Shown: one piece after another, positions 3,758 through 63,413 of the stretch
Layout: the number at the start of each line of letters is the position of its first letter
Position numbering within the stretch: position 1 is the stretch's first letter
Notes under the pieces: model-generated
Told to the model about the DNA's origin: nothing
What the model saw: the letters and a program-made list of their open reading frames with translations, nothing else
The model's database searches: none
Sequence record: OX638288
DNA length: 64,000 nucleotides
From: Escherichia phage UP19
Strand: one strand, 5' to 3'
Translations under genes and position numbers: made by a program

Positions 3758-3771
3758 TTGAGGAAAATATT

Positions 3772-5278: not shown

Positions 5279-5720
5279 GAAAGTTAAAGAACTATCAGCC
5301 GGTATTTTGTTCATGACTGTCGATAAAGAATTGGTTATGGGTCGTGTAACAGGTTCTCGTAATCCAGAGAATATGCGTCATAAATGGGACATTCCTAAAG
5401 GCCATGTCGAACCAGGTGAAGAGCCTATTCAAGCTGCTATGCGTGAAACCGAAGAAGAGATTGGATTCACTGCATATGACCCTGCGTTCCTGAAAGACCT
5501 AGGTGAGTTCAAATATTCTAGCAATAAGAATCTACATCTGTTCTTATATACTGTGCCTGTCGAACACGAGCAGTTCAAGGATTGCAAATGTACCGCTTAT
5601 CATACGTTCCCTGACGGCCGTACGATTCCTGAATTCGATGCCTTTGCCTTGATTAAACGTCCGCAATGGGAATATGTCATGGGCCCGTCGATGTTTAAGG
5701 TTTTAGATTCGCTCTTTTGA
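5265..5720 (+). CDS. nudE: Nudix hydrolase (NudE/e.1-like)
   Basis: Nudix box GHVEPGEEPIQAAMRETEEEIGF; located immediately upstream of e as in T4. Confidence 0.75.
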   Translation: MMMSKKVKELSAGILFMTVDKELVMGRVTGSRNPENMRHKWDIPKGHVEPGEEPIQAAMRETEEEIGFTAYDPAFLKDLGEFKYSSNKNLHLFLYTVPVEHEQFKDCKCTAYHTFPDGRTIPEFDAFALIKRPQWEYVMGPSMFKVLDSLF

Positions 5721-5748
5721 TATAAATACCTCCTATAATCAGGAGGTA
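5721..5748 (+). promoter_or_regulatory. late promoter TATAAATA (5721-5728) plus hairpin 5727-5748 sequestering the e RBS
   Basis: exact TATAAATA; arms TACCTCCT and AGGAGGTA are reverse complements; same arrangement described for T4 gene e. Confidence 0.6.
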
Positions 5749-5750
5749 TT

Positions 5751-6245
5751 ATGGATATTTTTGATATGTTACGTCAAGACGAAGGTCTTGATTTAAATCT
5801 TTATAAAGACACTGAAGGTTATTGGACTATTGGTATTGGCCAGTTAGTTACCAAGAACCCATCTAAAGATGTTGCTCGTGCCGAACTTGACAAACTTATG
5901 GGTCGGGTTTGCAATGGACGTATTACTATGGCTGAAGCTGAACAACTCTTTAACCGTTCAGTGGAAAATGCTCGTAGAGCTATAATGCGTAATCCTAAAT
6001 TGAAACCGGTTTATGATGTGCTGGACGAAGTTCGTCGTTGCGCGCTGATTAATATGGTCTTTCAAATGGGTGAAGCTGGTGTCGCTGGATTTACCAACTC
6101 TCTGCGTATGCTCCAGCAGAAACGTTGGGATGATGCCGCAGTTAACCTGGTGCAGTCCCGTTGGTATAAGCAGACTCCGAATCGCGCTAAGCGAGTTATC
6201 TCTACATTTAAAACAGGAACTTGGAAAGCATATGAAAACCTATAA
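5751..6245 (+). CDS. e: lysozyme (endolysin), T4 e-type, 164 aa
   Basis: protein [13 protein letters not shown]...[10 protein letters not shown] closely matches T4 lysozyme as recalled. Confidence 0.95.
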
Positions 6246-6501
6246 AGAATTTTTGGCCGAATCTCAACTGAACGAAAACACTGACCTAGACCGTATGACA
6301 TTCCTGGCTAAGAAAGGCGGCTTCGAATTTAAAGCCATTAAGAAAGTAAATGGGTATTCTTTTGAAGTCGGTGAATATACCTTTGGTAACAAGGGTGATG
6401 GCCAGTGGCAAATTGTTAAAAACGGCAAAGAAGTAGACTACCTTTTCGGTAAGAAACTTAGTGACATTGCTAAAATAATGGGCGAATATTCTAAAAAATA
6501 G
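6232..6501 (+). CDS. internal-protein-like, N-terminal capsid targeting sequence [10 protein letters not shown] (89 aa)
   Basis: ORF track 6070..6501 trimmed to ATG overlapping e stop; N-terminus matches T4 IP capsid-targeting consensus MKTYQEFIAE. Confidence 0.7.
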
Positions 6502-6529
6502 TTTACATCTCCTGTATGCATGATATTAT
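6501..6529 (+). promoter_or_regulatory. T4-type early promoter (GTTTAC 6501-6506, TATTAT 6524-6529) inside inverted repeat CTCCTGTA/TACAGGAG
   Basis: sequence read; inverted repeat 6509-6516 and 6542-6549 pairs the promoter region with the denV SD. Confidence 0.6.
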
Positions 6530-6557
6530 AGACCTATCAATTACAGGAGATTACAAA

Positions 6558-6974
6558 ATGACTCGTATCAACCTTACCTTAGTATCTGAATTGGCTGACC
6601 AACACTTAATGGCTGAATACCGTGAATTACCACGTGTTTTCGGTGCAGTTCGTAAGCATGTTGCTAACGGTAAACGTGTTCGTGATTTTAAAATCAGCCC
6701 TACTTTTATCCTTGGTACAGGCCATGTTACATTCTTTTATGATAAGCTTGAATTTTTACGTAAGCGACAAATTGAGCTTATAGCCGAATGTTTAAAACGT
6801 GGATTCAATATCAAGGATACTACTGTCCAAGACATTTCCGATATTCCACAGGAATTCCGTGGTGATTATATTCCTCACGAAGCTTCTATCGCTATTTCAC
6901 AAGCCCGTTTGGATGAAAAAATTGCACAGCGTCCTACCTGGTACAAATATTATGGTAAGGCTATTTACGCTTAA
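6558..6974 (+). CDS. denV: endonuclease V (pyrimidine dimer DNA glycosylase), 138 aa
   Basis: protein [31 protein letters not shown]... appears near-identical to T4 DenV as recalled. Confidence 0.95.
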
Positions 6975-7016
6975 TTAAATCCGTGATAGAATACTTCTAT
7001 CAACTTAAGGAATAAT

Positions 7017-7316
7017 ATGAAAACTTATCAAGAATTTATTACAGAAGCCAAAGCTCCTAAAGCATTCCAAATAGGTGTCCAAGGCACCTTAGACCAAGAA
7101 TATGTTGATGCTATTGTAGCAAGCCTCGGTAAACAGGGCGTACAAGTGGATTTGGTTGATTTTACTAAAGGTAATACTTTTAATATTGTTACATCTAAAG
7201 GCTCTTTAGCTAAAGTTAAAAAGGCCTTTGGTGTAGCCCAAGCATACGAAATCGACCACTCTGAATTAGAAAATAAAGGTCGCCAGAATACAATTAAAGG
7301 TTCTGGTTCTTTCTAA
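7017..7316 (+). CDS. internal-protein-like with capsid targeting sequence MKTYQEFITEA (99 aa)
   Basis: ORF track; N-terminus matches T4 internal-protein capsid-targeting sequence. Confidence 0.75.
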   Translation: MKTYQEFITEAKAPKAFQIGVQGTLDQEYVDAIVASLGKQGVQVDLVDFTKGNTFNIVTSKGSLAKVKKAFGVAQAYEIDHSELENKGRQNTIKGSGSF

Positions 7317-7476
7317 TAAAGGCAAGCCGACCCTCTCCTCATGAACGTCGCATCCTCTGAGTGATGGACCTTTCCCTACCTGTAATAAGGTCGAGCCCAA
7401 GTGCGGTAAAGGGTTTACATACGGATACATGGATGAATTATGTGCCAAGGAACGGCCCCACAACTAAGAGACCACT

Positions 7477-8004
7477 ATGAAATTTTTAACTCCCATTTAT
7501 CTAACCTTAATGCACGCCTTCGCTGAACGCGCCATTGAACGTTTAGACTCAGACCAATATACCTGGTACGAACCCACTTCAAGAATGCAAGAGTTTGGTA
7601 CTCTTCGACTTGACGGCGGGCGTCAAACAGGTAAAACAAGTGCCCTTGCCCAGTTCGCAGCTGATTGGGTTTCCAAGGGTAATGATGTGATTGTTATGTC
7701 AAGTTCTTCGCATCGCTCACGAGAAATCTGTAATATAATAAAAAGGGTTTCTAAGGCCCAACCACACCTTCAAGTAGAAGGTCCTGGGTTTGTTGTATAT
7801 GATACCATGCGTTCATTTTTAGACGAAGATAACTTCCATAAGTATCGTGGTCTATCAGTTACTCGATTATTGATTATTATCGAAGAGCCAATGCGCCTTC
7901 CATCGATGGATAAGTTCTATGAAGCTTACCAGGTAATGATTAACAAATTTATGTGCCAGGGTTCTAAACCTCTGCCACTGTTCTTTGTGATAGGAATGCA
8001 ATGA
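7477..8004 (+). CDS. P-loop NTPase-like protein (175 aa)
   Basis: Walker A GGRQTGKTS; Walker-B-like LLIIIEE. Confidence 0.55.
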   Translation: MKFLTPIYLTLMHAFAERAIERLDSDQYTWYEPTSRMQEFGTLRLDGGRQTGKTSALAQFAADWVSKGNDVIVMSSSSHRSREICNIIKRVSKAQPHLQVEGPGFVVYDTMRSFLDEDNFHKYRGLSVTRLLIIIEEPMRLPSMDKFYEAYQVMINKFMCQGSKPLPLFFVIGMQ

Positions 8005-27356: not shown

Positions 27357-27914
27357 ATGACCGAAATTAAACTGACTAAAAATAACTATGTAAATAATAA
27401 GGAGCTTCTGAAAGCCATTACCCAGTGGAAAACAGAACTCCGAGAAAATACCGACCCTAATAAAATAGTTCGTCAGAACGACGTTATCGGCTTGGCTATT
27501 ATGCTCATTGCTGAAGGCCTTTCTAAGCGTTTCAACTTCTCCGGATATACCCAATCTTGGAAGCAAGAAATGATTGCTGATGGAATCGAAGCCTCTATTA
27601 AAGGTCTTCATAACTTCGACGAAACAAAATACGACAACCCACATGCATATATCACTATGGCTTGTTTTAATGCCTTTGTTCAGCGTATCAAGAAAGAACG
27701 TAAAGAAATGGCAAAGAAATACAGCTACTTCGTCCATAACGTTTATGACGCCAATGACGACGACATGGTAGGTATCGCAGATGAAACTTTTATCCAGGAT
27801 ATTTACGACAAAATGACTCAGTATGAAACCTCTTTAGTTAAAGCGCCAGGGTCTGATAAGAGCGCCGAATCTAAAGTTGGTGAGCTGGATTTTTTATATG
27901 GAACTCAAGATTAA
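27357..27914 (+). CDS. 55: late-transcription sigma factor gp55 (185 aa)
   Basis: YVNNKELL...[55 protein letters not shown] matches T4 gp55 as recalled. Confidence 0.92.
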
Positions 27915-28938: not shown

Positions 28939-29082
28939 ATGGAATTACTTTTAGGATATGTCGTGTTATTCATGGCATTCTACACATTCACACGAGCCTG
29001 TTGGATAGGATTCTTTTCTACTCCTGATGGGTTCATCTCAATAATTTTATTTTGCATTGCGATAACGGTGCTCGGCTTATGA
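28939..29082 (+). CDS. small membrane protein (47 aa)
   Basis: translated by eye; GAGGAGA SD; ATGA overlap with gene 47 start. Confidence 0.45.
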   Translation: MELLLGYVVLFMAFYTFTRACWIGFFSTPDGFISIILFCIAITVLGL

Positions 29083-30101
29083 AAATATTAAACACAGGTG
29101 ACTGGCACCTTGGAGTGAAGGCCGATGATGTGTGGGTACAAAATATCCAACGTCAAGGTATCCAAGACGCTATCAATTATTCTAAAGCAAATGGTATTAC
29201 CGTGTGGATTCAATACGGTGATATCTTTGACGTTCGTAAAGCAATTACCCATAAGTGTATGGAATTCGCTCGCGAAATCTCTGATTTGCTTAAAGCTAAT
29301 GGCATTACCATGTATACCATTGTTGGTAATCATGATATGCACTACAAAAATACCTTGACTCCTAACGCAGCTTCTGAAGTTCTGGGTAAATATGACCATA
29401 TCAAGGTTATTGAGAAACCTACTACGGTTAACTTTGATGGCACCGAAATTGATTTGATTCCATGGATGTGTGAAGAAAACACGACTGATATCATGGACCA
29501 TATCAAAAATACCACAGCAGATTTCTGTATTGGACATTGGGAATTAAATGGTTTCTATTTCTATAAAGGAATGAAATCTCATGGTTTAGAACCTGATTTC
29601 CTTAAAAAGTATAAGCAAGTTTGGTCAGGCCACTTCCACACTATTTCTGATGCAGCAAACGTCAAGTACATTGGTACTCCATGGACCCTTACTGCAGGCG
29701 ATGAGAACGACCCTCGTGGTTTCTGGATTTTCGATACCGAAACTCATAAAATGGATTTCATCATTAATGAAACCTGTTGGCATCGTAAGATTCATTATCC
29801 TAACGAGACTATCGATTACAAAGATTTTACAAATATCGCAGTTCGTGTTATAGTCGATAAAATCGATGACGGTCTTACTAAGTTCGAATCAGAGCTTGAA
29901 AAGGTTGTTCACTCTTTACGTATTGTGTCTAAGGTAGATAATAGTGTTGATATCGATGATTCTGAAGAGGAAGACGAAGTTAAATCCCTCTTGGATATGA
30001 TGTATGATTATATCGATGCCCTTCCTGATGGCCACACTGAAGCCGATGTTAAAGCCCTTAAGACTATGGCTGCACAACTTTATAATGAGGTTACACGATG
30101 A
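29079..30101 (+). CDS. 47: recombination nuclease subunit gp47 (SbcD/Mre11-like), 340 aa
   Basis: ORF track 29052..30101 trimmed; MKILNTGDWHLGVKADD... matches T4 gp47 as recalled. Confidence 0.93.
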   Translation: MKILNTGDWHLGVKADDVWVQNIQRQGIQDAINYSKANGITVWIQYGDIFDVRKAITHKCMEFAREISDLLKANGITMYTIVGNHDMHYKNTLTPNAASEVLGKYDHIKVIEKPTTVNFDGTEIDLIPWMCEENTTDIMDHIKNTTADFCIGHWELNGFYFYKGMKSHGLEPDFLKKYKQVWSGHFHTISDAANVKYIGTPWTLTAGDENDPRGFWIFDTETHKMDFIINETCWHRKIHYPNETIDYKDFTNIAVRVIVDKIDDGLTKFESELEKVVHSLRIVSKVDNSVDIDDSEEEDEVKSLLDMMYDYIDALPDGHTEADVKALKTMAAQLYNEVTR

Positions 30102-30361: not shown

Positions 30362-32030
30362 GTTAAAGAAAGTAACGTATAAAAATATTATGTCGGTCGG
30401 GCAGCAGCCCATTACAATCCAACTTGATAAGGTCCAAAAGACCTTAGTCACTGGTAAAAATGGTGCAGGGAAATCAACATTCCTTGAAGCTGTAACATTT
30501 GCTCTGTTCGGTAAGCCTTTTCGTGATGTTAAGAAAGGGCAGTTGATTAACTCAAGTAACAAGAAAGACCTTTTGGTCGAACTGTGGATGGAATATGATG
30601 GCAAAGAATACTATATCAAACGCGGGCAAAAACCCAACGTTTTTGAAATCTCTTGTGACGGTGAACGTCTTGATGAATCTGCCAGCAGTAAAGACTTCCA
30701 AGCGGAATTTGAACAGCTTATCGGAATGTCCTATGCAAGCTTCAAACAAATTGTCGTACTCGGCACAGCTGGATATACCCCTTTTATGGGCCTATCCACT
30801 CCTGCAAGAAGAAAACTCGTCGAAGACCTCTTAGAGGTTTCTGTATTGGCGGATATGGATAAGTTAAACAAATCTTTGATTCGTGAGACCAATAGCCAAA
30901 TCCAAGTAATAGACGTTAAGCAAGATTCTATTACCCAACAAATTAAAATTTATAATGACAACGAAGAACGTCAACGTAAATTATCTGGCGAAAACGCTGC
31001 CCGTCTACAATTAATGTATGATGAGCTCGTTAAAGAAGCCAGGACTGCGAAGGCGAGCATAGAATCCCTGACTGATGAATTACTCAATGTTATCGTAGAT
31101 GATGACCCTAGCGATTCCATGAGTGACCTGAGTAATAAAGGATTTGCAATCAAAAATGATATGGCAACCTTTACAAAGGTGGTTAAGTTATACGAAACCG
31201 GTGGTCACTGCCCTACGTGTATGCAAGGGTTAGAAGAGAATGGTAATATCCTTACTAAAATTAAGGATAAAAACTTTGAGCTTCAAAAATCTTTGGATAA
31301 GATTAATGAGCAATACCAAGAGCTCAAGCTCATTAAAGACCAAGTAACCGAACAACGCAATAAAGCGTTGGCTATTAAATCTCAGATAGCTACTCATAAG
31401 CAGCAAGCCATTACTGCTGTAGAGAAAGCCAAAAAGGTTAAGGTATTAATTGACCAAGCGGCAGCTGAGTTCGTAAGTAATGCCGAAGAGATTGCTGCGC
31501 TTCAAGCAGAGCTTGATAAAATCGTCTCTACCAAATCGTCCTTGGTAATGGAAAAATATCATCGTGGAATTCTGACAGAAATGTTGAAGGATACAGGTAT
31601 TAAAGGTTCCATTATTAAGAAATACATTCCTATCTTTAATAAGCAGATTAATTCTTATTTGAAGATGTTAGAGGCGGATTATAGTTTTTCTCTTGACGAA
31701 GAGTTCAATGAGACGATTAAGTCGCGTGGACGCGAAGACTTTAGTTATGCTTCATTTAGTGAAGGTGAAAAGTCTAGAATAGATGTGGCTCTGTTATTTA
31801 CCTGGCGAGATATTGCTTCAAAGGTTTCAGGCATTAATATATCTACTCTTATTCTTGATGAGGTCTTTGATGGAAGTTTTGATGCAGAAGGTATTAAAGG
31901 TGTATCAAATATTATAAATTCTTTGGAAGATTCTAATGTCTTTATAATTTCACACAAAGACCATGACCCACAATCGTATGGACAACATTTACAAATGAAG
32001 AAGGTTGGCCGCTTTACAGTATTAGAATAA
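30348..32030 (+). CDS. 46: recombination nuclease ATPase subunit gp46 (SbcC/Rad50-like), 560 aa
   Basis: ORF track 30336..32030 trimmed; MKTFKLKKVTYKNIMSVGQ...GKNGAGKST matches T4 gp46 as recalled. Confidence 0.93.
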   Translation: MKTFKLKKVTYKNIMSVGQQPITIQLDKVQKTLVTGKNGAGKSTFLEAVTFALFGKPFRDVKKGQLINSSNKKDLLVELWMEYDGKEYYIKRGQKPNVFEISCDGERLDESASSKDFQAEFEQLIGMSYASFKQIVVLGTAGYTPFMGLSTPARRKLVEDLLEVSVLADMDKLNKSLIRETNSQIQVIDVKQDSITQQIKIYNDNEERQRKLSGENAARLQLMYDELVKEARTAKASIESLTDELLNVIVDDDPSDSMSDLSNKGFAIKNDMATFTKVVKLYETGGHCPTCMQGLEENGNILTKIKDKNFELQKSLDKINEQYQELKLIKDQVTEQRNKALAIKSQIATHKQQAITAVEKAKKVKVLIDQAAAEFVSNAEEIAALQAELDKIVSTKSSLVMEKYHRGILTEMLKDTGIKGSIIKKYIPIFNKQINSYLKMLEADYSFSLDEEFNETIKSRGREDFSYASFSEGEKSRIDVALLFTWRDIASKVSGINISTLILDEVFDGSFDAEGIKGVSNIINSLEDSNVFIISHKDHDPQSYGQHLQMKKVGRFTVLE

Positions 32031-32713
32031 TGAGACATCTTGTTTACAAAATAATAAATTTAGTTAATAATAAGTACTATGTAGGGATACATAGTACTGA
32101 AAATATTAAAGATTCGTATATGGGCTCTGGTTTATATATTAAAGCTTCTATTAAAAAATATGGTTTGGAAAATCATAGAAAGGAAATACTTTATAATTTT
32201 GATACCAGAGAAGAGGCTATCCAAATGGAAAGAATTATAGTCAATGAGGAATTTATAAAGAACCCTCTTACATATAATATTTCTTTAGGAGGTAATGCCG
32301 CACCTTTTATAAAAGAGGAAACCAGACTTAAACAGAGTATAGCTGCTAAAAATAGACCGTATTCATTTTATGAAAACCTTTTTAAAACTAGAAAGAAATC
32401 TAAATGCCTAGAGCTAAGAAATAAATCTAAAGAACATATAGAAAAAATTCGTCAGAGTAATATAAGAAATGGTACATATTTGCCTGAGAACAACCCTATG
32501 TTCGGAAAAACTCATAGCCAAGAAACAAGGGATAAAATTTCTATAGCCCTTAATTCTAGGTCTGACGAAGCAAAACAGGCTATGAAAAGCAAACAATCTG
32601 CAAAAGCTAAAAGCAGACCAACTGTAAAGTGCCCATATTGTGATAAAATTGGCTCTAACAACATTATGAAACGATGGCACTTTGATAATTGTAAATTAAA
32701 GGATGCTTCATAA
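32030..32713 (+). CDS. GIY-YIG homing endonuclease (Seg-like), 227 aa
   Basis: GIY-YIG motif 'VYKIINLVNNKYYVGIHST'; AT-rich codon usage; inserted between 46 and rpbA. Confidence 0.8.
   Translation: MRHLVYKIINLVNNKYYVGIHSTENIKDSYMGSGLYIKASIKKYGLENHRKEILYNFDTREEAIQMERIIVNEEFIKNPLTYNISLGGNAAPFIKEETRLKQSIAAKNRPYSFYENLFKTRKKSKCLELRNKSKEHIEKIRQSNIRNGTYLPENNPMFGKTHSQETRDKISIALNSRSDEAKQAMKSKQSAKAKSRPTVKCPYCDKIGSNNIMKRWHFDNCKLKDAS
32030..32713 (+). mobile_element. free-standing homing endonuclease gene
   Basis: GIY-YIG ORF between conserved genes; markedly more AT-rich than flanks. Confidence 0.55.
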
Positions 32714-39130: not shown

Positions 39131-39367
39131 ATGGAAGCTTTAATCGTTAGTGCTGGTGTTTTAGGATTCGGTTCTCTGGTTATTATGTTCATTGGTTACT
39201 TTTTACCATGGATTCTGGCCCTTCTGCGAGGCACTCGTAGCAATGTTGGAATCTTCTTCCTTAATCTCCTGTTAGGGTGGACGATGATTGGTTGGGTAGT
39301 GGCTTTAATCTGGGCTATCGTCGCTGAACGTAAATCAAACGCACAAATCATTATCGTTAAACAATGA
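39131..39367 (+). CDS. imm: small two-helix membrane protein, Imm-like by position (78 aa)
   Basis: position immediately downstream of gene 43; two transmembrane segments. Confidence 0.5.
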   Translation: MEALIVSAGVLGFGSLVIMFIGYFLPWILALLRGTRSNVGIFFLNLLLGWTMIGWVVALIWAIVAERKSNAQIIIVKQ

Positions 39368-39501
39368 AGATAATTATTTTATTTCTTATAATGGCTGCCT
39401 TTACCGTTTATTGGGCAGTGGCAATTCCTCCAATGATTCCAACATTAATCATGGGATGGATTATTCTTATAGCACAAATTAAGTATAACTGTTTTAATTG
39501 A
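39364..39501 (+). CDS. small hydrophobic protein (45 aa), below ORF-track cutoff
   Basis: translated by eye; ATGA overlap with imm-like stop. Confidence 0.4.
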   Translation: MKIIILFLIMAAFTVYWAVAIPPMIPTLIMGWIILIAQIKYNCFN

Positions 39502-39508
39502 GGATATT

Positions 39509-40009
39509 ATGAAAAAGTTAATTATCGCAATGAGTATGCTCCTATCAGGTTGCGCAGTCCAATACGGTGATGCAGTTTCTGCTGATGAAGTTGGTAAAGC
39601 TCGTATCGCAGCTGAACAGAAACAATTCGACGGCGAAATGAAATTCCGTGCCGGTTCTGGACTTGTGTACACCCGAGCTAATAATCAATGTGGTAATAAC
39701 TGTGCAAAATATGCTCAAGGGGAAATCGAATTCCAACGTGAACAAGAGTCTAAGCGTGAAGCGGTACTAGCCAAACACCAGGCAGAAATGAAGCGCCAAG
39801 ATGATTTGTACAAAAAGCAGAAACTGTATGCCATGTGTGTAAACCATATCAATCTACAGATTTCTGTCCACGAGGCTCGTTATTACGAAATGCTCGAAAC
39901 CGAGAGCTTCGATAAGGCTCGTGATTATAAGAAACAAATCAACAAGCTTAAGACCAAAGTGCCTGCTGCAGTAGAACAGTGCATGGAATACGGTAAAGAT
40001 AAGATTTAA
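39509..40009 (+). CDS. lipoprotein (166 aa)
   Basis: signal peptide with lipobox LSGC; charged coiled-coil-like C-terminal half. Confidence 0.6.
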   Translation: MKKLIIAMSMLLSGCAVQYGDAVSADEVGKARIAAEQKQFDGEMKFRAGSGLVYTRANNQCGNNCAKYAQGEIEFQREQESKREAVLAKHQAEMKRQDDLYKKQKLYAMCVNHINLQISVHEARYYEMLETESFDKARDYKKQINKLKTKVPAAVEQCMEYGKDKI

Positions 40010-40069
40010 GCAATAGAAATTTATTAAAAATAGTGTATAATGTACCTACATTCACTTGAGGAACAGATA

Positions 40070-41743
40070 ATGAAAAAGGTTGTTATTTTAGGCGCAGGTC
40101 TTGGCTCACGGTTGTATCCAATTACTAACGAAATCCCAAAGGTATTGGTTAACTACAAACAACATACGGTATTAAAACATTTGTATGATTTGTATAGTAA
40201 CCAATCAGATGAAATTATTCTGGTTATTCACAGCAAATTTAACGACCTCGTTAAAGGCTATATTAAATCCATTAACATGATTACTGGTGATAAGCCTAAA
40301 TTCACTATTCGTAACGTTGATGTTGCTAATGGTTCAGCTCATGCTATCGATTGCATTGCCGAAGATATCATTGGCCATAATGTCCTGTTTAACTGGTGTG
40401 ACATCATTCCTATCGGTCATAAAGTTGAATGGGGTAACGACTATTGTTATACCTATGGAACTGACTGTCGCTTTACATTTGAAGAACCGTACTTACGTGA
40501 AATTGGTACCGGTGGCGGTGTAGTTGGTTTGTATCAGGTAGCCAATTGGACAGGTTTCGACCGTTCTAATTATGGCGAAGACCTTGCTGATAACCTGGAT
40601 TCAATGGTCTATTTGACTGAACGTAAACTGGATTTTGTAGTTGATGTCGGTGACAAATTGAAACTTGCCAAGGCCCATGAAGATTCTGAAATTAACCGTG
40701 AATTTAATAAATTAGAGTTCACCGAGAATCTGGCTATTAAAGTACCAACTAACGAATTAGGTAAAGAAATTCAATCTAAAGAAATCAATTGGTATAATTC
40801 TATTGATTCTGAATTCGTTCCTAGCATTGTAGACTTTTCTCCAGGCGAATTCATTAAAATGGAACGTATCTTTGGTCGTACCATGGCAGATGCCTACCGG
40901 TTTATGTCCAAAGAAACTAAAGTCCTCATGGTTTATAAGGTCATTAGTGCATTACGTTCATTCGGTGGAACTATCGATAATCCGTCCGATGAGCAATGGT
41001 ATTCCGATGTTAAGAAAGAAGTGTTGGACAAGGTCCTTATTCGTAATGCTTCTATTGCCGGATTGATTGAAGGCTTTGCTCCACAGGGCATTACCCATGT
41101 TAACGATTTCAAAGTAGGCGACCCCGAAAAACTTCTCCGCCATGCACTAGAAATTCTGTCTGAACATAAAGAACCGTACCAACTTATTCATGGCGACCCG
41201 CACTACAGTAATATTATGCTGTCGGACGAAGGTGATATTAAAATCATCGACCCACGTGGTTATTTCGGTAATAGTTCTAAAGGCCCTGCGATTTATGATG
41301 AAGCTAAGGTGCTTTATTCTATCGATGGCTATGACAAATTTAACTCAGACCCTCTATGGGGTGGATTAACTCGTAACGGAACTCGTGTATTCGTTGATAT
41401 CGAAAAGGTTATGCCTTTAGACGATATTCCTATGTGCACATTTAAGCACAAGCTCTGGATTGCTGTTATTTGGATGGCGCTGGCAGGTTACTTTAAGAAT
41501 AACCCTCTGAAAGCTCTGGGTGCTTATTATAACGGTTTGTATCAACTGAGTGTGCTGCTGAAGCGGCATCCTCGTAAGCGTAAGCTTATTACTGGTGAAT
41601 TTGTCGATGAAGTTCGTGACCCTATCACGGCTCAAATTATTACTCGTTGTCCTGATAAGTGGGTTTTGCTTGACCAGGAAACTGGTGTAAAATATAAACC
41701 TACAGGTTCTACTGAGCTCCACAAACAATGGAAGAAAATTTAA
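40070..41743 (+). CDS. bifunctional nucleotidyltransferase/kinase-like protein (557 aa)
   Basis: ORF track 40040..41743 trimmed; N-terminal ILGAGLGSRLYPITNEIPKVLV; C-terminal HGDPHYSNIM and IIDPRG. Confidence 0.75.
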   Translation: MKKVVILGAGLGSRLYPITNEIPKVLVNYKQHTVLKHLYDLYSNQSDEIILVIHSKFNDLVKGYIKSINMITGDKPKFTIRNVDVANGSAHAIDCIAEDIIGHNVLFNWCDIIPIGHKVEWGNDYCYTYGTDCRFTFEEPYLREIGTGGGVVGLYQVANWTGFDRSNYGEDLADNLDSMVYLTERKLDFVVDVGDKLKLAKAHEDSEINREFNKLEFTENLAIKVPTNELGKEIQSKEINWYNSIDSEFVPSIVDFSPGEFIKMERIFGRTMADAYRFMSKETKVLMVYKVISALRSFGGTIDNPSDEQWYSDVKKEVLDKVLIRNASIAGLIEGFAPQGITHVNDFKVGDPEKLLRHALEILSEHKEPYQLIHGDPHYSNIMLSDEGDIKIIDPRGYFGNSSKGPAIYDEAKVLYSIDGYDKFNSDPLWGGLTRNGTRVFVDIEKVMPLDDIPMCTFKHKLWIAVIWMALAGYFKNNPLKALGAYYNGLYQLSVLLKRHPRKRKLITGEFVDEVRDPITAQIITRCPDKWVLLDQETGVKYKPTGSTELHKQWKKI

Positions 41744-42126
41744 TGTCGCATCGAGTAGAAAATAAGCCACATTTATGTTTTGATATCGATAACACAATCA
41801 CGATTTGGAACCATGACCGTGATTATGAGAACTTTAAACCGGACACCGAAATGGTGTCCATGATTAATAAGCTTTATGATGAAGGGTACGAGATTACATT
41901 ATTCACTGCCCGTGGCATGACTTCATGTGGCCCAGGTCGAATCTTGGTTGAAGTAGTTCCTGCATTGGTTAAGAACCTTGAAAAGATTGGATTGAAATAT
42001 CATAATCTGCTTACGCATAAGCCGAGTTATACTTTTATCATCGATGACCGAGCAATCCGTCCTGACCACTTTAAAGAAATGGTTCGTGAAGGAACTCTTG
42101 ATAGTTATAAGGCCTATCATCCATGA
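41743..42126 (+). CDS. HAD-superfamily phosphatase-like protein (127 aa)
   Basis: ORF track 41728..42126 trimmed to TAATG-overlap ATG; HAD motif I FDIDNTIT. Confidence 0.65.
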   Translation: MSHRVENKPHLCFDIDNTITIWNHDRDYENFKPDTEMVSMINKLYDEGYEITLFTARGMTSCGPGRILVEVVPALVKNLEKIGLKYHNLLTHKPSYTFIIDDRAIRPDHFKEMVREGTLDSYKAYHP

Positions 42127-42659
42127 ATCCAAAAATCATTGTTATAGACGGCCCGGATAATTCCGGGAAGTCCACTTTAATTAAAAATCTGTTATCCAAT
42201 AAGAAATACCGCCTTATTGATTTTCCTAAAAAGATTAATGGCAAGTGTATTTCATTAGGAACTGATAACGATAAGGCTTTAGTTGAAACTCTGTATAAGT
42301 TTTTAGACCCTAATTTCGTTTATATCCTTGACCGTGGTTATCCAAGTAATATTGTTTACTCAGGATTCCTTCGTGGTGAAATGGACCCTTATGTAGAACT
42401 GGAAGATTGGAAAGGGTTTAAATCCGAATTTAACGTTATCGAGGTTATTTTAACTCGCAATCCATTAGACGAAGACTTCGAAGACGACCTTATTAAATTA
42501 ACCAAAGATGAGTTCAACCTAACTATCCGGCAATACGAAACATGTTTTGAAAACGTGTTTAAAATCTTAAATCATGACGGCCATAATAATTTGCTTAATG
42601 TTGATATGGTAGAATTAAAACGTCTGAACGAATATATTGAAAATAAGGTGAATAAATGA
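42123..42659 (+). CDS. P-loop (d)NMP-kinase-like protein (178 aa)
   Basis: Walker A IVIDGPDNSGKST resembles thymidylate/deoxynucleotide kinase family. Confidence 0.65.
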   Translation: MNPKIIVIDGPDNSGKSTLIKNLLSNKKYRLIDFPKKINGKCISLGTDNDKALVETLYKFLDPNFVYILDRGYPSNIVYSGFLRGEMDPYVELEDWKGFKSEFNVIEVILTRNPLDEDFEDDLIKLTKDEFNLTIRQYETCFENVFKILNHDGHNNLLNVDMVELKRLNEYIENKVNK

Positions 42660-43354
42660 AACACATTACCGCTGTTAGTTTTGAAAATGCATTTAAACAA
42701 ATGAACGAAGAAATCCTGGAAGCTCCACAGTTTGCAGTTGATTCTCGTATCGGACGTTGTTATGAAATTGGTTCTGCTTCGGTAGAAGTACTGGATGCAA
42801 GCACCTATAAATTCACCGACCCACGTATCAATCGTATTAGTTATGAATATGCCGAATCCTTTTGGAAATTTATGATTTCTGGTGGTACTGACGCTGCCGA
42901 AGCATTTAAGGAATACCCTAATGTTGCTAAGTTCATTGATAAGCCGAAAAGTGATGTATTGCCTGCAAACTTCAACACTTTCTATGGACCTCGAATTGTG
43001 GCCCAACTCCCAGCCCTACTTAAAGAGCTTAAAGAAAAGGCTAACTCGCGAAGAGTTGTGTTCCAGATTCTCCAAGAACAAGACCAAGCCCTCCTTGATT
43101 CTGACGAATCCTTAGAATATCCTTGCACCGATTCGGTAACGTATTATATTCGTGACGGACGTTTGTATGCACACACCCATATGCGTTCACAAAACTGCGC
43201 CGTTGTTATGCAGCTGGATTTCTATCTGCAGGGTAAACTGATGGCATTTATTGCTGAACAGTGTGGTGTCGGTTTAGGTACATATTCCCACACCATGGTA
43301 AGTGCACACGTGTTTGAACGTGATTTTGACTACGTCCGAGGTTTCCTGAAATGA
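42656..43354 (+). CDS. 42: thymidylate-synthase-fold pyrimidine hydroxymethylase (gene 42 position), divergent from T4 gp42 (232 aa)
   Basis: NSRRVVFQI, EYPCTDSVTYYIRDGRLYAHTHMRSQNCA and SAHVFERDF align with T4 gp42 motifs as recalled. Confidence 0.7.
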   Translation: MKHITAVSFENAFKQMNEEILEAPQFAVDSRIGRCYEIGSASVEVLDASTYKFTDPRINRISYEYAESFWKFMISGGTDAAEAFKEYPNVAKFIDKPKSDVLPANFNTFYGPRIVAQLPALLKELKEKANSRRVVFQILQEQDQALLDSDESLEYPCTDSVTYYIRDGRLYAHTHMRSQNCAVVMQLDFYLQGKLMAFIAEQCGVGLGTYSHTMVSAHVFERDFDYVRGFLK

Positions 43355-44244
43355 GTTTGTTTATCGTTCCTATTTTCAGTATGCGTAGTTACGAAACAGG
43401 TGAATATGCCGTCCTTAAGGACGGCAATTTTCAACTCCATTTAAATCGTGCTCGTCCAGGTGATTATCTGGCTTATCCTAGAAATTCGAGCGATATCAAA
43501 GAATGCATTGAATTATTCCCAGAACTGAATTTCGTACCACTTTGGTATAAAGAAAATGCTTATGAAACCCGTAAACATTTCTGGTCTGAAAATGAGTTTG
43601 TAGTCGATTCACTAATCGAATACTATGATTGCTCAGGACTGGTGACCGATATCACCGGTTATGATGGTGCTCATACTGTACAATTCAACTTTAATATCAC
43701 AATGGACCCTGAAGTTCCTCGTTATTATATCGACGAGTTCATTGATATTGATGTGGCTTCAGTTGAACGTTCACTTTATACTACAGTCTTGAATCAATGC
43801 CAGAAAGACGTCCTGGTGTCACGAGGTGCATCCTCTGATAAGATTTTTGTAGACCAAAAGGTAATTAATCCTGCAGTAATTGAGCGTTACTCTGAAGGTC
43901 TAGCGCCTATTAAAATTGATGGTATTTTCCATCCATTCCGTATTTCGGATAAGTGTTATCAATTCGAAAGAGTTGTAGACCAAGCTGCCGCTGAAGGTGC
44001 TCGTCTTTATATCACCGACCCTAATGATTCATTTAAGCGCGAAGACTATCGTCCTGATGTAGAGATTATTAAATTCAAACCGAGTAAGGTTGAATATTAT
44101 CAAATTCTGAAATCAAGACCACATATCATTTATCATGAGAACCCAGGTTTAGTATTCCATCCTGGTCTGGCTGAATTCATTTATTTTGGTGCCAATATTC
44201 ATTCTGAATACGAAATGCCACGTTATGAGGACGTAGTATGCTAG
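43351..44244 (+). CDS. hypothetical protein in beta-glucosyltransferase position; candidate DNA-modifying transferase (297 aa)
   Basis: ORF track; positional replacement of T4 beta-gt between 42 and uvsX; no recognisable similarity to T4 beta-gt as recalled. Confidence 0.6.
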   Translation: MSLFIVPIFSMRSYETGEYAVLKDGNFQLHLNRARPGDYLAYPRNSSDIKECIELFPELNFVPLWYKENAYETRKHFWSENEFVVDSLIEYYDCSGLVTDITGYDGAHTVQFNFNITMDPEVPRYYIDEFIDIDVASVERSLYTTVLNQCQKDVLVSRGASSDKIFVDQKVINPAVIERYSEGLAPIKIDGIFHPFRISDKCYQFERVVDQAAAEGARLYITDPNDSFKREDYRPDVEIIKFKPSKVEYYQILKSRPHIIYHENPGLVFHPGLAEFIYFGANIHSEYEMPRYEDVVC

Positions 44245-44369
44245 GTCCTCTATTGCTTTTTATAGGTTTGTTATTATTCTCTTTCGGAGGCTTGCTATTA
44301 TTAGTGTGGCTCGAGAAACGAGAAGTTCGGAAGATAGTCGATAAGGCTATCAACCGAGGAATTAAGTAA
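44238..44369 (+). CDS. small hydrophobic protein (43 aa), below ORF-track cutoff
   Basis: translated by eye; overlaps preceding stop. Confidence 0.3.
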   Translation: MLGPLLLFIGLLLFSFGGLLLLVWLEKREVRKIVDKAINRGIK

Positions 44370-44446: not shown

Positions 44447-45619
44447 ATGTCTGATTTAAAATCCCGTTTGATTAAAGCTTCTACTTCTAAAATGACTGCC
44501 GACCTGACCAAATCTAAATTGTTTAATGGTCGTGACGAAGTTCCTACTCGTATTCCTATGCTTAATATTGCATTGGGTGGTGCGTTGAATGCAGGCTTAC
44601 AATCAGGTTTGACAATCTTTGCTGCACCGTCTAAACACTTTAAAACGTTGTTTGGATTAACTATGGTTGCGGCATATATGAAGAAATATCCAGACGCAAT
44701 TTGCTTGTTCTATGACTCTGAGTTCGGTGCTTCAGAATCTTATTTCCGTTCAATGGGTGTTGACCTGGAACGTGTGGTTCATACGCCAATCCAGTCAGTC
44801 GAACAACTGAAGGTTGACATGACCAACCAATTAGAAGAAATTACTCGTGGTGAAAAGGTTATTATCTTTATCGACTCCATCGGTAACACTGCTTCTAAGA
44901 AAGAAACCGAAGATGCTTTGAACGAGAAAGTTGTAGGTGATATGACTCGTGCTAAGTCTCTGAAATCTCTGTTCCGTATCGTAACACCTTATCTGACTAT
45001 CAAGGATATTCCTTGCGTAGCAATTAACCATACGGCTATGGAAATTGGTGGAATGTATCCTAAAGAGATTATGGGTGGTGGTACTGGTATTCTGTACTCT
45101 GCTTCTACCGTATTCTTTATCTCTAAACGTCAGGTTAAAGATGGTACCGAGCTCACTGGTTATGACTTCACCCTGAAGGCCGAAAAATCTCGTACTGTTA
45201 AAGAGAAATCAACGTTCCCAATTACTGTGAACTTTGAAGGTGGTATCGACCCGTTTAGTGGTCTGCTCGAAATGGCTACTGATATTGGCTTTGTCGTGAA
45301 ACCTAAAGCTGGTTGGTATAATCGTGCATTCCTTGACGAAACCACGGGTGAAATGGTTCAAGAAGAAAAATCATGGCGTGCTAAAGCTACCGATTGTGTC
45401 GAGTTCTGGGGACCACTGTTTAAACATGCTCCATTCCGTGAAGCAATCGAGAATAAGTATAAGCTCGGTGCAATTAATTCTATTAAAGAAGTCGATGATG
45501 CAGTGAACGACCTTATTAACTCTCGTGTCTCTAAGAACGTTGCAGTTAAATTGAGCGGTGACACTCAAAGCGCTGCTGATATCGAAAACGATTTAGAAGA
45601 GATGGATTTAGATGACTGA
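44447..45619 (+). CDS. uvsX: recombinase UvsX (RecA-like), 390 aa
   Basis: MSDLKSRLIKASTSK...FAAPSKHFKT matches T4 UvsX as recalled. Confidence 0.95.
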   Translation: MSDLKSRLIKASTSKMTADLTKSKLFNGRDEVPTRIPMLNIALGGALNAGLQSGLTIFAAPSKHFKTLFGLTMVAAYMKKYPDAICLFYDSEFGASESYFRSMGVDLERVVHTPIQSVEQLKVDMTNQLEEITRGEKVIIFIDSIGNTASKKETEDALNEKVVGDMTRAKSLKSLFRIVTPYLTIKDIPCVAINHTAMEIGGMYPKEIMGGGTGILYSASTVFFISKRQVKDGTELTGYDFTLKAEKSRTVKEKSTFPITVNFEGGIDPFSGLLEMATDIGFVVKPKAGWYNRAFLDETTGEMVQEEKSWRAKATDCVEFWGPLFKHAPFREAIENKYKLGAINSIKEVDDAVNDLINSRVSKNVAVKLSGDTQSAADIENDLEEMDLDD

Positions 45620-49802: not shown

Positions 49803-50831
49803 ATGTCATATGTCGATAGAGAATTTGCTGTACGTGCCTTGAATTACCAACCTAAATTCAGACAAGTAACCGGTAGTGATTTTAAATTAAATTGTCGTTG
49901 TCGTGTGTGTGGTGACTCACAAAAAGATGAGAACAAAGCTCGTTTTTGGGCCTATCCGGCCAATGACGGCTCTGTAATGCTACACTGTTTTAACTGTGAT
50001 TATTCGGCAGGAATTAAGAAGTACCTATACGAATATGAGCCTGATTTATATCGCGAATATATTCTTGAGAAACATAAAGAGCAATCGTTTGGGAGACAAG
50101 CTGCACCTAAGGTGGAGATATCTGAAAAAATTAAAGCTAAGATGCCTGTCATTGAAAAGCTTAATTTCTGTGAACGATTAGATAGAATGCCGAAAGACCA
50201 TCCTATTATTAAGTATGTAACTCTGCGGTGCATTCCTGAAAATAAATGGAATCGGTTATGGTTTACTAAAGAATGGCCTGCATTGGTGAATTCTGTTAAT
50301 CCGGGGACCTATTCCAAAGAAATGCCTGAACCACGTTTGGTTATTCCAATTTTCAATAAGAATAAACAAATTGAAAGTTTTCAGGGCCGAGCCTTGCGTA
50401 AAGATGCTCCACAAAAATATATTACAATAAAAGCTCATGACCAAGCTACAAAAATATATGGAATGGATACAGTTGACGAACGTCAATTGGTGTGGGTAAT
50501 GGAAGGTCCTATTGATTCATTATTCGTACCTAATGCAATAGCAATTACTGGTGGGTCGTTGGACTTGGCTATGGTTCCATGTAAAGAAACTCGTGCTTGG
50601 GTAATGGACAATGAACCCCGTCATCCTGACACAATTAAGCGTATGCAACGATTAGTTGATGCCGGCGAAAGGGTTCTATTCTGGGACAAGGCTCCATGGC
50701 CTTCTAAAGATATAAATGATATGGTTATGAAAGATAAAGCTGATATAAATGATGTATTGGCATATATGAAAGCTAATATAGCCCAAGGGTTAATGGCAAA
50801 AATGAGGCTTTCAAAATATTCTAAAATTTAG
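49803..50831 (+). CDS. 61: DNA primase gp61 (342 aa)
   Basis: zinc ribbon CRCRVCGDSQKDENKAR; matches T4 gp61 as recalled. Confidence 0.93.
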   Translation: MSYVDREFAVRALNYQPKFRQVTGSDFKLNCRCRVCGDSQKDENKARFWAYPANDGSVMLHCFNCDYSAGIKKYLYEYEPDLYREYILEKHKEQSFGRQAAPKVEISEKIKAKMPVIEKLNFCERLDRMPKDHPIIKYVTLRCIPENKWNRLWFTKEWPALVNSVNPGTYSKEMPEPRLVIPIFNKNKQIESFQGRALRKDAPQKYITIKAHDQATKIYGMDTVDERQLVWVMEGPIDSLFVPNAIAITGGSLDLAMVPCKETRAWVMDNEPRHPDTIKRMQRLVDAGERVLFWDKAPWPSKDINDMVMKDKADINDVLAYMKANIAQGLMAKMRLSKYSKI

Positions 50832-51028
50832 ACAGGAACTCCGCTAAAGAATCCAATTATGCTTAATACGTGTTCCATTGTAACCGCTGGTAAAATTACC
50901 CCTTGGCTAGCGGCTACAGGAACTACTAAAAGATTCCAAAGGAATACGTCTAGCGCAAGAAAACCTAACATCATTTTCTTGTCTTTCTTTTCAGCCAATT
51001 TCCAGATTTGGTAAAAAATACTACCCAT
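50828..51028 (-). CDS. small membrane protein (66 aa), only convincing minus-strand gene
   Basis: ORF track; perfect AGGAGG SD 6 nt upstream on minus strand; convergent with gene 61. Confidence 0.6.
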   Translation of the reverse strand: MGSIFYQIWKLAEKKDKKMMLGFLALDVFLWNLLVVPVAASQGVILPAVTMEHVLSIIGFFSGVPV

Positions 51029-51122
51029 GTTATCCTCCTGTTAAATTAATATTTATTCGCTTTAATCTAGCAGTTTATAATTATCTAACTTACTAACAAA
51101 TGAATTGATAAGGAAAAATATA

Positions 51123-51644
51123 ATGGCTCATTTTAATGAATGTTCTCAACTTATTGCCGGTGCCGATAAAGCTGAAGAAGCTTATTTTAATGCTCTGATT
51201 CACGAAGATAAAGACCCTCTACAGGTTATGCTTGATATGCAGAAATCTTTGCAGGTTCGTTTAGCTAAAGATAAGCCTGAATATAATCGTCATCCTGATG
51301 ATTTGGCCACTGCGGGTGAAGTTGTCGATTGGCTTCGCAACCAGAAAGATTATATTGATGACGAATTCCGTGAACTTCTGACTTCTCTTGGTGGTATGAG
51401 CAATGGTGAAAAAGATGCATCTGCAGTATGGAAGCCTTGGAAAGCTCAACATGCTGAACGTCGTGAAACCCTGATTAACGATTTGTCTCCTGAAGACCAG
51501 CTCGAAATTAAATTCGAAATGATTGATATTCTGCACTTTGTTCTGAATATGTTCCAGGGTCTTGGACTGACCGCTGAAGAAATCTTTAAACTGTATTACC
51601 TGAAAAATGCCGAGAACTTTGCTCGTCAAGACCGAGGTTATTAA
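51123..51644 (+). CDS. 56: dCTPase/dUTPase gp56 (173 aa)
   Basis: ORF track 51105..51644 trimmed; MAHFNEC...DPLQVMLDMQ...FRELLTSLG matches T4 gp56 as recalled. Confidence 0.9.
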   Translation: MAHFNECSQLIAGADKAEEAYFNALIHEDKDPLQVMLDMQKSLQVRLAKDKPEYNRHPDDLATAGEVVDWLRNQKDYIDDEFRELLTSLGGMSNGEKDASAVWKPWKAQHAERRETLINDLSPEDQLEIKFEMIDILHFVLNMFQGLGLTAEEIFKLYYLKNAENFARQDRGY

Positions 51645-61529: not shown

Positions 61530-61545
61530 GGGCTTCGGCCCTTTT
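61529..61545 (+). terminator. candidate rho-independent terminator (short T-run)
   Basis: AGGGC-TTCG-GCCCT followed by TTTT. Confidence 0.45.
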
Positions 61546-61595
61546 ATGCTTTAAGTGAAATGGGATAATATTCTCCTACTACATGAGGAAATAAC

Positions 61596-63413
61596 ATGAT
61601 TAAGAATGAAATTAAAGTACTGTCCGACATTGAACATATCAAAAAACGTAGTGGGATGTATATTGGCTCAAGTGCTAATGAAGCCCACGGTCGATTCCTG
61701 TTCGGTAATTTTACCCAGGTGAACTATGTTCCTGGACTGGTTAAATTAATTGACGAAATCATTGATAACTCTGTCGATGAGGCTATTCGTACCAATTTTA
61801 AATTCGCAAATAAAATTGATGTTCAAATTAAGAATAACCAGGTTTCGGTTTCTGATAATGGCCGTGGTATTCCTCAAGCAATGGTTACTGACCAAAACGG
61901 TGAACAAATTCCAGGTCCTGTAGCTGCATGGACTATTCCAAAGGCCGGTGGTAACTTTGGAGATGACGCTGAGCGTAAGACAGGCGGCATGAACGGTGTT
62001 GGTAGTAGTTTAACTAATATCTTCTCTGTTTTGTTCACAGGCATCACCTCTGATGGTGAGAATGAGATTACTGTTAACTGTTCCAATGGAATGGAAAACA
62101 AAGGTTGGTCTACTAAGAAATCTAAAGGTAAGGGTACTTCGGTTATATTCACCCCAGACTTTAACCATTTCGAAGAAAATAGTCTGTCCCAAATTTATCT
62201 GGATATTACATTAGACCGTCTTCAAACACTGGCCGTAATTTATCCAGATATCCAATTTACTTTTAATGGTAAAAAAGTAGATGGTAACTTTAAAAAGTAT
62301 GCTAAGCAATTTGGTGAAGACTTTGTAATCCAAGAAACTGATAATGTTTCGATGGCATTTACTCCTTCTCCGGACGGGTTCCGTCAACTGACGTATGTAA
62401 ACAATATCCATACCAAGAATGGTGGCCACCACGTTGAATGTGTGTTTGATGATATTTGTGAGCACCTTCTGCCTGGTATTAAAAAGAAATATAAAGGAAT
62501 CGAAGTAACTAAGGCTCGTGTTAAAGAATGCCTTACTATGGTAATGTTCATTCGTGATATGAGCAATATGCGTTTTGATTCACAGACTAAAGAGCGATTA
62601 ACCTCTCCGTTTGGTGAGATTCGTAACCATATCCAAATTGATGCTAAGAAAATTGCAACGGCTATTCTTAAGGTCGATGGGTTGATTATGCCTATTGTCG
62701 AAGCCGCTTTAGCACGTAAACTCGCTGCTGAAAAAGCCGCCGAAACAAAAGCTGCTAAGAAAGCTTTGAAAGCCAAGGTCCATAAGCATATTAAAGCCAA
62801 TATGTATGGCAAAGACGCTGATACGACTTTATTCCTTACGGAAGGTGATTCTGCAATGGGTCCTTTCATTGAAGTTCGTAATAAAGACCTCCAAGGTGGT
62901 TATCCGTTACGCGGAAAGGTTATGAATACCTGGGGTATGACTGCTGCCGATATCATGAAGAACAAAGAATTGTTTGATATCTGTGCAATCACTGGACTGG
63001 TTATTGGTGAACCTGCAGATAAAACCAACTACCGAAATATCGCTATCATGACTGACGCCGATGTGGATGGTACTGGTTCGATTTATCCTTCGTTATTAGC
63101 TTTCTTTAGTCAGTGGCCGGAATTGTTTGAACAGGGACGAATTCGTTTCTGTAAGACTCCTGTAATTATTGCCCAGATTGGTAAAGAACAAGAATGGTTT
63201 TATGACGTTCCTAGTTATACCAAAGTCAAGGACTCTCTACCAAAACATTCTATTCGATATATCAAAGGTCTCGGTTCTCTTGAGAAAGCTGAATACCGTC
63301 GAATGATTCAGGACCCTAAATTTGATGTGGTTCAATTGCCTGAAGATTGGAAAGAACAGTTCGAAATGCTCCTTGGAAACGACCCTCAACTCCGTAAGGC
63401 TTGGATGTCGTAA
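61596..63413 (+). CDS. 39: DNA topoisomerase II large (ATPase, GyrB-like) subunit gp39 (605 aa)
   Basis: GyrB ATPase motifs; matches T4 gp39 as recalled. Confidence 0.95.
   Translation: MIKNEIKVLSDIEHIKKRSGMYIGSSANEAHGRFLFGNFTQVNYVPGLVKLIDEIIDNSVDEAIRTNFKFANKIDVQIKNNQVSVSDNGRGIPQAMVTDQNGEQIPGPVAAWTIPKAGGNFGDDAERKTGGMNGVGSSLTNIFSVLFTGITSDGENEITVNCSNGMENKGWSTKKSKGKGTSVIFTPDFNHFEENSLSQIYLDITLDRLQTLAVIYPDIQFTFNGKKVDGNFKKYAKQFGEDFVIQETDNVSMAFTPSPDGFRQLTYVNNIHTKNGGHHVECVFDDICEHLLPGIKKKYKGIEVTKARVKECLTMVMFIRDMSNMRFDSQTKERLTSPFGEIRNHIQIDAKKIATAILKVDGLIMPIVEAALARKLAAEKAAETKAAKKALKAKVHKHIKANMYGKDADTTLFLTEGDSAMGPFIEVRNKDLQGGYPLRGKVMNTWGMTAADIMKNKELFDICAITGLVIGEPADKTNYRNIAIMTDADVDGTGSIYPSLLAFFSQWPELFEQGRIRFCKTPVIIAQIGKEQEWFYDVPSYTKVKDSLPKHSIRYIKGLGSLEKAEYRRMIQDPKFDVVQLPEDWKEQFEMLLGNDPQLRKAWMS

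Follow-up and report, generated by a model that had tools for sequence, protein, structure and literature searches.

In phages RB69 and DLP3, the modified base is mono-, di- or tri-arabosylated 5-hydroxycytosine (5hoC) whose sugar is linked to C5 as an ether (Lee et al., NAR 2026, PMC13326640), and 5-ara-dC and 5-ara-ara-dC (ara, arabinosyl; dC, deoxycytidine) have been confirmed in another Mosigvirus (PMC13390438). RB69 had been reported in 2018 to carry arabinosyl-hydroxymethylcytosine (ara-hmC) (PMC6024577). RB69 gp48 and DLP3 gp80 make 5-hydroxy-dCMP (5hodCMP) from deoxycytidine monophosphate (dCMP) with O2 and flavin (Lee et al., NAR 2026, PMC13326640), and an Asn at the position of D169 in thymidylate synthase (ThyA) has been put forward as the diagnostic hydroxylase residue (Lee et al., PMC13326640). 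For the sugar, the part of that paper that cites He et al. 2026 gives HY126 AfhE as both a kinase for arabinose-5-phosphate and a pyrophosphorylase for UDP-arabinose, and HY126 AfhF as a HAD phosphatase whose substrate is arabinofuranose-1,5-bisphosphate (PMC13326640). Here, we describe a related cluster from a 64,000-nt stretch of Escherichia phage UP19 (sequence record OX638288; hereafter the window), located between imm and uvsX at positions 39509-44244. Five of its genes, at 40070-44244, very probably constitute a reduced RB69/HY126-type pathway through which virion cytosine would be replaced by 5-O-arabinofuranosyl-5-hydroxycytosine. The analysis itself establishes that the genes are orthologous and coupled, which folds and signature residues their products have, and which genes are absent; the enzyme activities are those of the Mosigvirus and DLP3 orthologues, taken from the papers. 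What we infer for this phage is that the sugar is arabinose, that the host supplies the arabinose-5-phosphate, that a single arabinose is added, what the kinase acts on, and whether the first transfer takes place on DNA or on the nucleotide.

The closest described systems compare with this locus as follows. In Mosigvirus (RB69, HY126, Bas46/47 and NP), the same five enzymes occur in the gp43-uvsX interval at 38-80% identity, and a gp56 dCTPase is also encoded. However, the window phage lacks the isomerase (RB69 gp55), the U32-like gene (gp50) and the second arabinosyltransferase (gp3, between rIIA and gp39), its kinase gene stands between the HAD and hydroxylase genes, and imm and lipoprotein genes are present at the gp43 end. 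Mosigvirus makes mono- plus di-arabosylation, whereas only mono-arabosylation is predicted for the window phage. The Acinetobacter phage DLP3 (tri-arabinosyl-5hoC, gp76-83) shares the hydroxylase, kinase, first glycosyltransferase, HAD phosphatase and fusion enzyme (PMC13326640), but has three glycosyltransferases and its own isomerase, compared with one glycosyltransferase and no isomerase in the window. Shewanella phage Thanatos (TH1_060, TH1_062 and TH1_063) can be likened by description: it has one glycosyltransferase (300 aa), a 561-aa fusion and a 237-aa thymidylate-synthase homologue, and is given by Lee et al. as mono-arabinosylated with that single glycosyltransferase (PMC13326640), matching the prediction for the window, although its host and lineage are distant and its own authors proposed deoxypentose or xylose. 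Rhizobium phage RL38J1 (Pootjesviridae, hexosyl-5hoC) has an adjacent trio of hydroxylase, glycosyltransferase and Tmk-like kinase genes and carries D169N, but uses galactose and glucose, with UDP-galactofuranose formed by a mutase, and has no AfhE or AfhF-type genes (PMC13326640).

T4 (gp42, gp1, gp56, alpha-gt and beta-gt) uses the same genomic slot and likewise combines a dCTPase, a dCMP-acting enzyme belonging to the thymidylate-synthase superfamily, and a UDP-sugar GT-B transferase. Its chemistry is hydroxymethylation with folate, in contrast to the hydroxylation, C5 ether link and flavin predicted for the window (PMC13326640). The sugar donor of the window phage, unlike that of T4, would not be a normal host metabolite, and the phage therefore brings sugar-activation genes. 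The T4 order in this interval is imm - 42 - beta-gt - segA - uvsX; the preliminary description of the locus had given T4 only 42 and beta-gt here, both of which are present, and had omitted segA. No alpha-gt lies between genes 55 and 47 of the window, as had also been claimed: the 1.1-kb gap from gp55 (27357-27914) to gp47 (29052-30101) holds a 103-aa DUF2654 open reading frame (ORF) only.

Predicted cytosine hydroxylation and sugar activation

The cluster consists of five + strand genes with zero intergenic space, encoding a nucleotidyltransferase-kinase fusion of AfhE type (40070-41743, 557 aa), a HAD phosphatase of AfhF type (41743-42126, 127 aa, motif DIDNTIT), a P-loop kinase of thymidylate-kinase fold (42123-42659, 178 aa, GPDNSGKST and LDRGY), a thymidylate-synthase homologue predicted to be a dCMP 5-hydroxylase (42656-43354, 232 aa, EYPCTDS) and a GT-B glycosyltransferase (43351-44244, 297 aa). 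The junctions read TAATG, ATGA, ATGA and ATGA, and because stop and start codons overlap at every one of them the five genes are translationally coupled. Together with a lipoprotein gene discussed below, these are the six + strand ORFs, with their quoted motifs, that had been reported between imm and uvsX, and all were recovered in the ORF list. The proposal of an RB69-type DNA hypermodification cluster was likewise borne out, as all five enzymes are orthologous to RB69/HY126 genes. Identity across the interval reaches 99.6% with Dhakavirus IME281 and 98% with JS98 and JS10, and 51 database records cover at least 80% of it. Public labels on the five genes include 'hypothetical', 'phosphoheptose isomerase', 'capsule biosynthesis protein', 'thymidylate kinase', 'thymidylate synthase' and 'dCMP hydroxymethylase'. 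A scan for promoters and terminators returned a number of sites not above that in shuffled sequence, and TAGAAA-16-TATAAT at 40014-41, immediately 5' of the first enzyme gene, is a candidate promoter only.

The thymidylate-synthase homologue (Pfam Thymidylat_synt, E 3.6e-13) is 80% identical to RB69 gp48, with the motif HMRSQNCAVVMQLDF identical in both, and its Acinetobacter homologues are at ~71% identity. Sequence matches in the PDB include 9iqu, 9iqc and 9ir2 (E 2e-125). The catalytic residue, Cys157 in EYPCT, aligns with ThyA C146, while Asn180 in RSQN occupies the position of ThyA D169 (D169N), Asp188 that of N177 (N177D, dCMP-specifying) and Glu154 that of L143 (L143E). The signature claim rests on the gp48 and gp42 alignments; the direct alignment to E. 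coli ThyA agrees when gap penalties are applied, and its register shifts (166-177 segment, MAFFT) when they are lax. By these sequence features, the product of 42656-43354 is a putative dCMP 5-hydroxylase (5hodCMP synthase) of the thymidylate-synthase superfamily, predicted to depend on flavin and O2.

The fusion enzyme would supply the activated sugar. The N-terminal part holds a sugar-1-phosphate nucleotidyltransferase domain with GAGLGSRLYPIT (residues 13-110 match Pfam NTP_transferase at E 3e-8), and the C-terminal part an APH-like kinase domain with HGDPHYSN and IDPRG (residues 356-427 match Pfam APH at E 1e-5). The protein belongs to phrog_4098 (E 4e-268), is 44% and 41% identical to RB69 gp53 and gp52, respectively, and is colinear with the 562-aa HY126 protein at 43% identity (557/562 residues aligned), sharing the motifs GAGLxxRLYPIT, HGDPxxSN and IDPRGYFG. 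An intact homologue of the RB69 fusion ORF53_52c was noted in Dhakavirus IME08 in 2018 (PMC6024577). Homology to HY126 and RB69 places the start at ATG 40070, the alternative ATG at 40040 giving 567 aa. By analogy with AfhE, the enzyme would act as an arabinose-5-phosphate 1-kinase and UDP-arabinofuranose pyrophosphorylase.

The HAD protein carries motifs I-IV (DIDNTIT, FTARG, THKP and IIDDR), is 62% identical to RB69 gp51 and matches PDB entries 9iqw (E 7e-54) and 1xpj (E 4e-12). Its start at 41743 (127 aa) is fixed by homology, and a longer version beginning at 41728 lacks homology support. PDB entries 9iqu, 9iqc, 9ir2 and 9iqw, all from 2025, are presumed here to be HY126 enzymes, the HY126 label having been seen on 9iqz only. 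By analogy with AfhF, the protein would take the 5-phosphate off arabinofuranose-1,5-bisphosphate. The earlier suggestion that a kinase and a nucleotidyltransferase make the donor matches the AfhE and AfhF roles in the relevant part of Lee et al. (PMC13326640).

The 297-aa glycosyltransferase, an orthologue of RB69 gp46:47, is 70% and 65% identical to the two halves of that protein and 67% identical to the intact HY126 protein. Fold comparison confirmed its GT-B fold. Its sequence shows no similarity to that of T4 beta-gt, and a PDB sequence search with it gave zero matches. As an orthologue of 'arabinosyltransferase 1' (the RB69 gp46:47 and DLP3 gp79 family), it would join the first arabinofuranose to 5hoC at the 5-hydroxyl.

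In the proposed base branch, gp56 would convert dCTP to dCMP, thereby removing dCTP and feeding the hydroxylase, which would convert dCMP to 5hodCMP at C5 using flavin and O2. The diphosphate may then be formed by a deoxynucleoside monophosphate (dNMP) kinase, possibly gp1 and possibly also the Tmk-like kinase at 42123-42659, and the triphosphate by the host nucleoside diphosphate kinase, with insertion by the gp43 polymerase. In the sugar branch, D-arabinose-5-phosphate would be phosphorylated on C1 by the C-terminal kinase domain of the fusion, the HAD phosphatase would remove the 5-phosphate, and the N-terminal nucleotidyltransferase domain would join arabinofuranose-1-phosphate and UTP to give UDP-arabinofuranose. 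Finally, one arabinose would be moved to the 5-hydroxyl by the GT-B enzyme. The gp56 dCTPase/dUTPase is encoded outside the cluster at 51123-51644 on the + strand (Pfam dUTPase_2; named gp56 in the IME281 annotation) and is 68% identical to T4 gp56, in agreement with the claim that a T4-like gp56 is kept. The complete IME281 genome, assembled from six pieces, served as a stand-in for the genome beyond the window; it encodes gp1, Alc, DenB and Ndd, with gp1 lying outside the window.

Level of the first transfer and identity of the sugar

The kinase has the P-loop, the DR(Y/H/G) motif and the thymidylate-kinase fold, all of which were confirmed, and is an orthologue of RB69 gp45 at 38% identity. 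Its substrate is probably 5hodCMP or a glycosylated derivative. The preliminary description had made it the dedicated kinase of the pathway, a putative role; a gp1-type dNMP kinase is known to phosphorylate 5hodCMP (Lee et al., PMC13326640). A phage-like 340-kb metagenomic contig (ENA ERZ28656614 scaffold_8) carries four consecutive genes at 3739-6546, in the order Flavodoxin_2-family gene, hydroxylase (55% identity, D169N kept), glycosyltransferase (39%) and Tmk-like kinase, and no AfhE or AfhF-type sugar-activation gene was found within 6 kb of them. The flavin-reductase-like Flavodoxin_2 neighbour would suit a flavin-dependent hydroxylase. The recurrence of the hydroxylase, glycosyltransferase and kinase trio in the window, RL38J1 and this contig argues for placing the kinase on the nucleotide branch. 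It is thus conceivable, though unlikely, that the first sugar is put on the free nucleotide (5hodCMP), with the Tmk-like kinase dedicated to the glycosyl-dNMP and the polymerase inserting a pre-glycosylated dCTP analogue. The data of Lee et al. do not distinguish nucleotide-level from DNA-level first glycosylation, and single glycosyltransferases were inactive on 5hoC-DNA (PMC13326640). If true, nucleotide-level first glycosylation would depart from the T4 rule of post-replicative glycosylation.

The preliminary description had regarded the pathway as self-contained, which does not hold, as no isomerase and no second arabinosyltransferase are present and gp56 and gp1 are encoded elsewhere. In tblastn with a threshold of E<=1, neither RB69 gp55 (arabinose-5-phosphate isomerase) nor RB69 gp3 (second arabinosyltransferase) matched the window or the complete IME281 genome, and no second copy of the 297-aa glycosyltransferase was found in the complete IME281 genome (tblastn, E<=1e-3). 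The gp39-rIIA.1 interval, the site of gp3 in Mosigviruses, contains a 53-aa ORF only, and database-wide the gp3 homologues fall into two groups, those of Mosigvirus with 95% identity or more and those of Acinetobacter phages and a single Tegunavirus record with less than 60%. Searches with the isomerase, gp3 and the hydroxylase returned 137, 137 and 176 Escherichia-phage records, respectively, and these counts by organism name suggest that roughly 50 Dhakavirus records are without isomerase and gp3. E. coli itself makes arabinose-5-phosphate via KdsD and GutQ. As IME281 has no isomerase, the starting sugar would presumably be drawn from these host enzymes, and as only one glycosyltransferase is encoded, each base would presumably receive a single arabinose.

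RB69 gp50 (U32-peptidase-like) also gave no significant tblastn match in the window (E<=1) or the complete IME281 genome, and its absence from Dhakavirus suggests that it is not essential for the basic arabosylated base. This gene, at 6493-7662 of the RB69 piece compared, is a predicted sugar or heterocycle reductase according to Lee et al. (PMC13326640).

Several points weigh against an arabinosylated 5hoC in this phage. The isomerase that gave no match in the window or IME281 accompanies the cluster in RB69, HY126 and DLP3, and tblastn detects it across numerous further phage genera. With 43% identity to the HY126 protein, the fusion enzyme has a sequence from which its sugar specificity is not readable. 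The activity of the 'arabinosyltransferase 1' family on 5hoC-DNA was not reconstituted by Lee et al. (PMC13326640), and the Thanatos homologue of the glycosyltransferase has UDP-xylose pyrophosphorylase activity in vitro. In addition, the literature on Dhakavirus DNA contained genomic mentions only, with no nucleoside chemistry found.

Some of these points lend weight to a 5-hydroxycytosine whose sugar is not D-arabinofuranose but, for instance, a different pentose, with the fusion and phosphatase acting on a different host sugar phosphate. The lack of an arabinose-5-phosphate isomerase in IME281, which the record counts suggest is genus-wide, and the identity of only 43% between the fusion enzyme and HY126 AfhE would both fit such a base, the identity of the Thanatos pentose is disputed, and 5hoC with other sugars is known from the galactose/glucose chain of Rhizobium phage RL38J1 (PMC13326640). 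However, both the glycosyltransferase and the phosphatase have close orthologues in Mosigvirus (67-70% and 62% identity, respectively), and a phage isomerase is dispensable where KdsD and GutQ provide arabinose-5-phosphate. Lee et al. moreover placed the Dhakavirus cluster among the arabinosylation clusters, listing Dhakaviruses with the lineages in which a syntenic region points to arabinosyl-5hoC biosynthesis (PMC13326640). We therefore regard a different sugar as distinctly improbable, and arabinofuranose remains the favoured substituent.

A route in which hmC is first made by a dCMP hydroxymethylase of the T4 kind and then arabinosylated is very unlikely. Between 2018 and 2025, RB69 was held in print to carry ara-hmC (PMC6024577), which had also been named in the preliminary description as the RB69-type base, and the window enzyme and T4 gp42 share a superfamily. 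However, the RB69 base has since been reassigned to arabinosyl-5-hydroxycytosine, arabosylated through a C5 ether (PMC13326640, PMC13390438), and the window enzyme, with 80% identity to the verified hydroxylase and D169N, is only 25% identical to T4 gp42 (PDB 1b5e, E 1.5e-4, 25 bits), a divergence that had been pointed out previously. Hydroxymethylases and thymidylate synthases retain the Asp, as does T4 gp42, its RSND...ND facing RSQN...LD of the window enzyme in an ungapped BLASTP alignment. The Asn in place of Asp, together with the 25% identity, sets the product of 42656-43354 apart from gp42-type dCMP hydroxymethylases.

That the sugar genes are a module of auxiliary metabolism serving the sugars of the cell envelope or capsule, unrelated to DNA, is hardly credible and was dropped: the HAD protein does match the NCBIfam 'capsule biosynthesis phosphatase' model (TIGR01689, E 1e-14, under the model cut-off), the closest structural relatives of the glycosyltransferase do act on lipopolysaccharide, bacillithiol and lipid, and public annotations do read 'phosphoheptose isomerase' or 'capsule biosynthesis protein', but the sugar genes are translationally coupled to those for a nucleotide hydroxylase and a nucleotide kinase, occupy the T4 slot of 42 and beta-gt and have HY126 orthologues that make UDP-arabinose for DNA according to the part of Lee et al. 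concerned (PMC13326640), and the glycosyltransferase also accompanies the hydroxylase and kinase on the unrelated large phage-like contig.

Flanking genes and genome identity

The cluster is flanked on the left by imm (39131-39367; Pfam Imm_superinfect, E 5e-18) and on the right by uvsX (44447-45619). Between imm and the first enzyme gene lies the lipoprotein gene (39509-40009, + strand, 166 aa, lipobox LLSGC), whose product belongs to phrog_1754, a family of unknown function. Relatives at ~53% identity occur in E. coli phages of the VR7, VR25 and VR26 type, and distant ones (~28-35%) beside gp43 in other genera, while no counterpart was found in the RB69/HY126 cluster and no similarity to RB69/HY126 gp50. 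Given this distribution and the lack of similarity to gp50, the lipoprotein, which had been counted in the pathway, was dropped as a member of it. Its gene is situated just 3' of imm with a 45-aa ORF between them, and a role in superinfection exclusion is a guess from this position. The 45-aa ORF (39364-39501) encodes a small membrane-like product (phrog_3610) and overlaps the imm stop codon. RB69 has a small ORF, ORF054c, at the equivalent end of its cluster, and the annotation of this ORF records similarity to the T4 42-imm intercistronic region. At the other end, a strongly hydrophobic 43-aa ORF (44238-44369, + strand) begins within the glycosyltransferase gene, with an overlap of 7 nt, GTAGTATGCTAG; IME281 has it at 95% conservation but without annotation, and it had no Pfam or PHROG match. 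The preliminary description mentioned neither the 45-aa nor the 43-aa ORF.

Compared with IME281 over its full length, the window shows 86% to 99% identity and two homing-endonuclease differences, and on this sequence comparison it is a distinct isolate of Dhakavirus, T4-like. Between gp46 and gp45.2, the window encodes on its + strand a homing-endonuclease-like product of 227 aa in which a NUMOD3 motif occurs (ORF 32030-32713), while the counterpart in IME281 is an unrelated - strand homing endonuclease gene with which the window does not align there. Likewise, an HNH endonuclease gene just 5' of gp39 in IME281 is not in the window, where the interval 61545-61741 measures 196 bp versus 872 bp. 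The interval between genes 61 and 56 (50831-51123) is only ~290 bp and encodes no Dam; in T4, the dam methyltransferase gene sits between these two genes.

Implications for Dhakavirus annotation and DNA chemistry

The pathway is already known from work published in 2025-2026, in which Dhakavirus is named explicitly (Lee et al., PMC13326640), and the current picture of it is unchanged by the present finding. Two predictions made here did not appear in the literature consulted, namely the mono-arabinosylated base and the reliance on host arabinose-5-phosphate. The practical gain is the correct annotation of mislabelled public records. Dhakaviruses (JS98, JS10, IME08 and relatives) have been used and proposed as therapeutic coliphages, and the chemistry of phage DNA sets its attack by restriction enzymes, CRISPR nucleases and type IV systems, as well as its sequencing and cloning behaviour.

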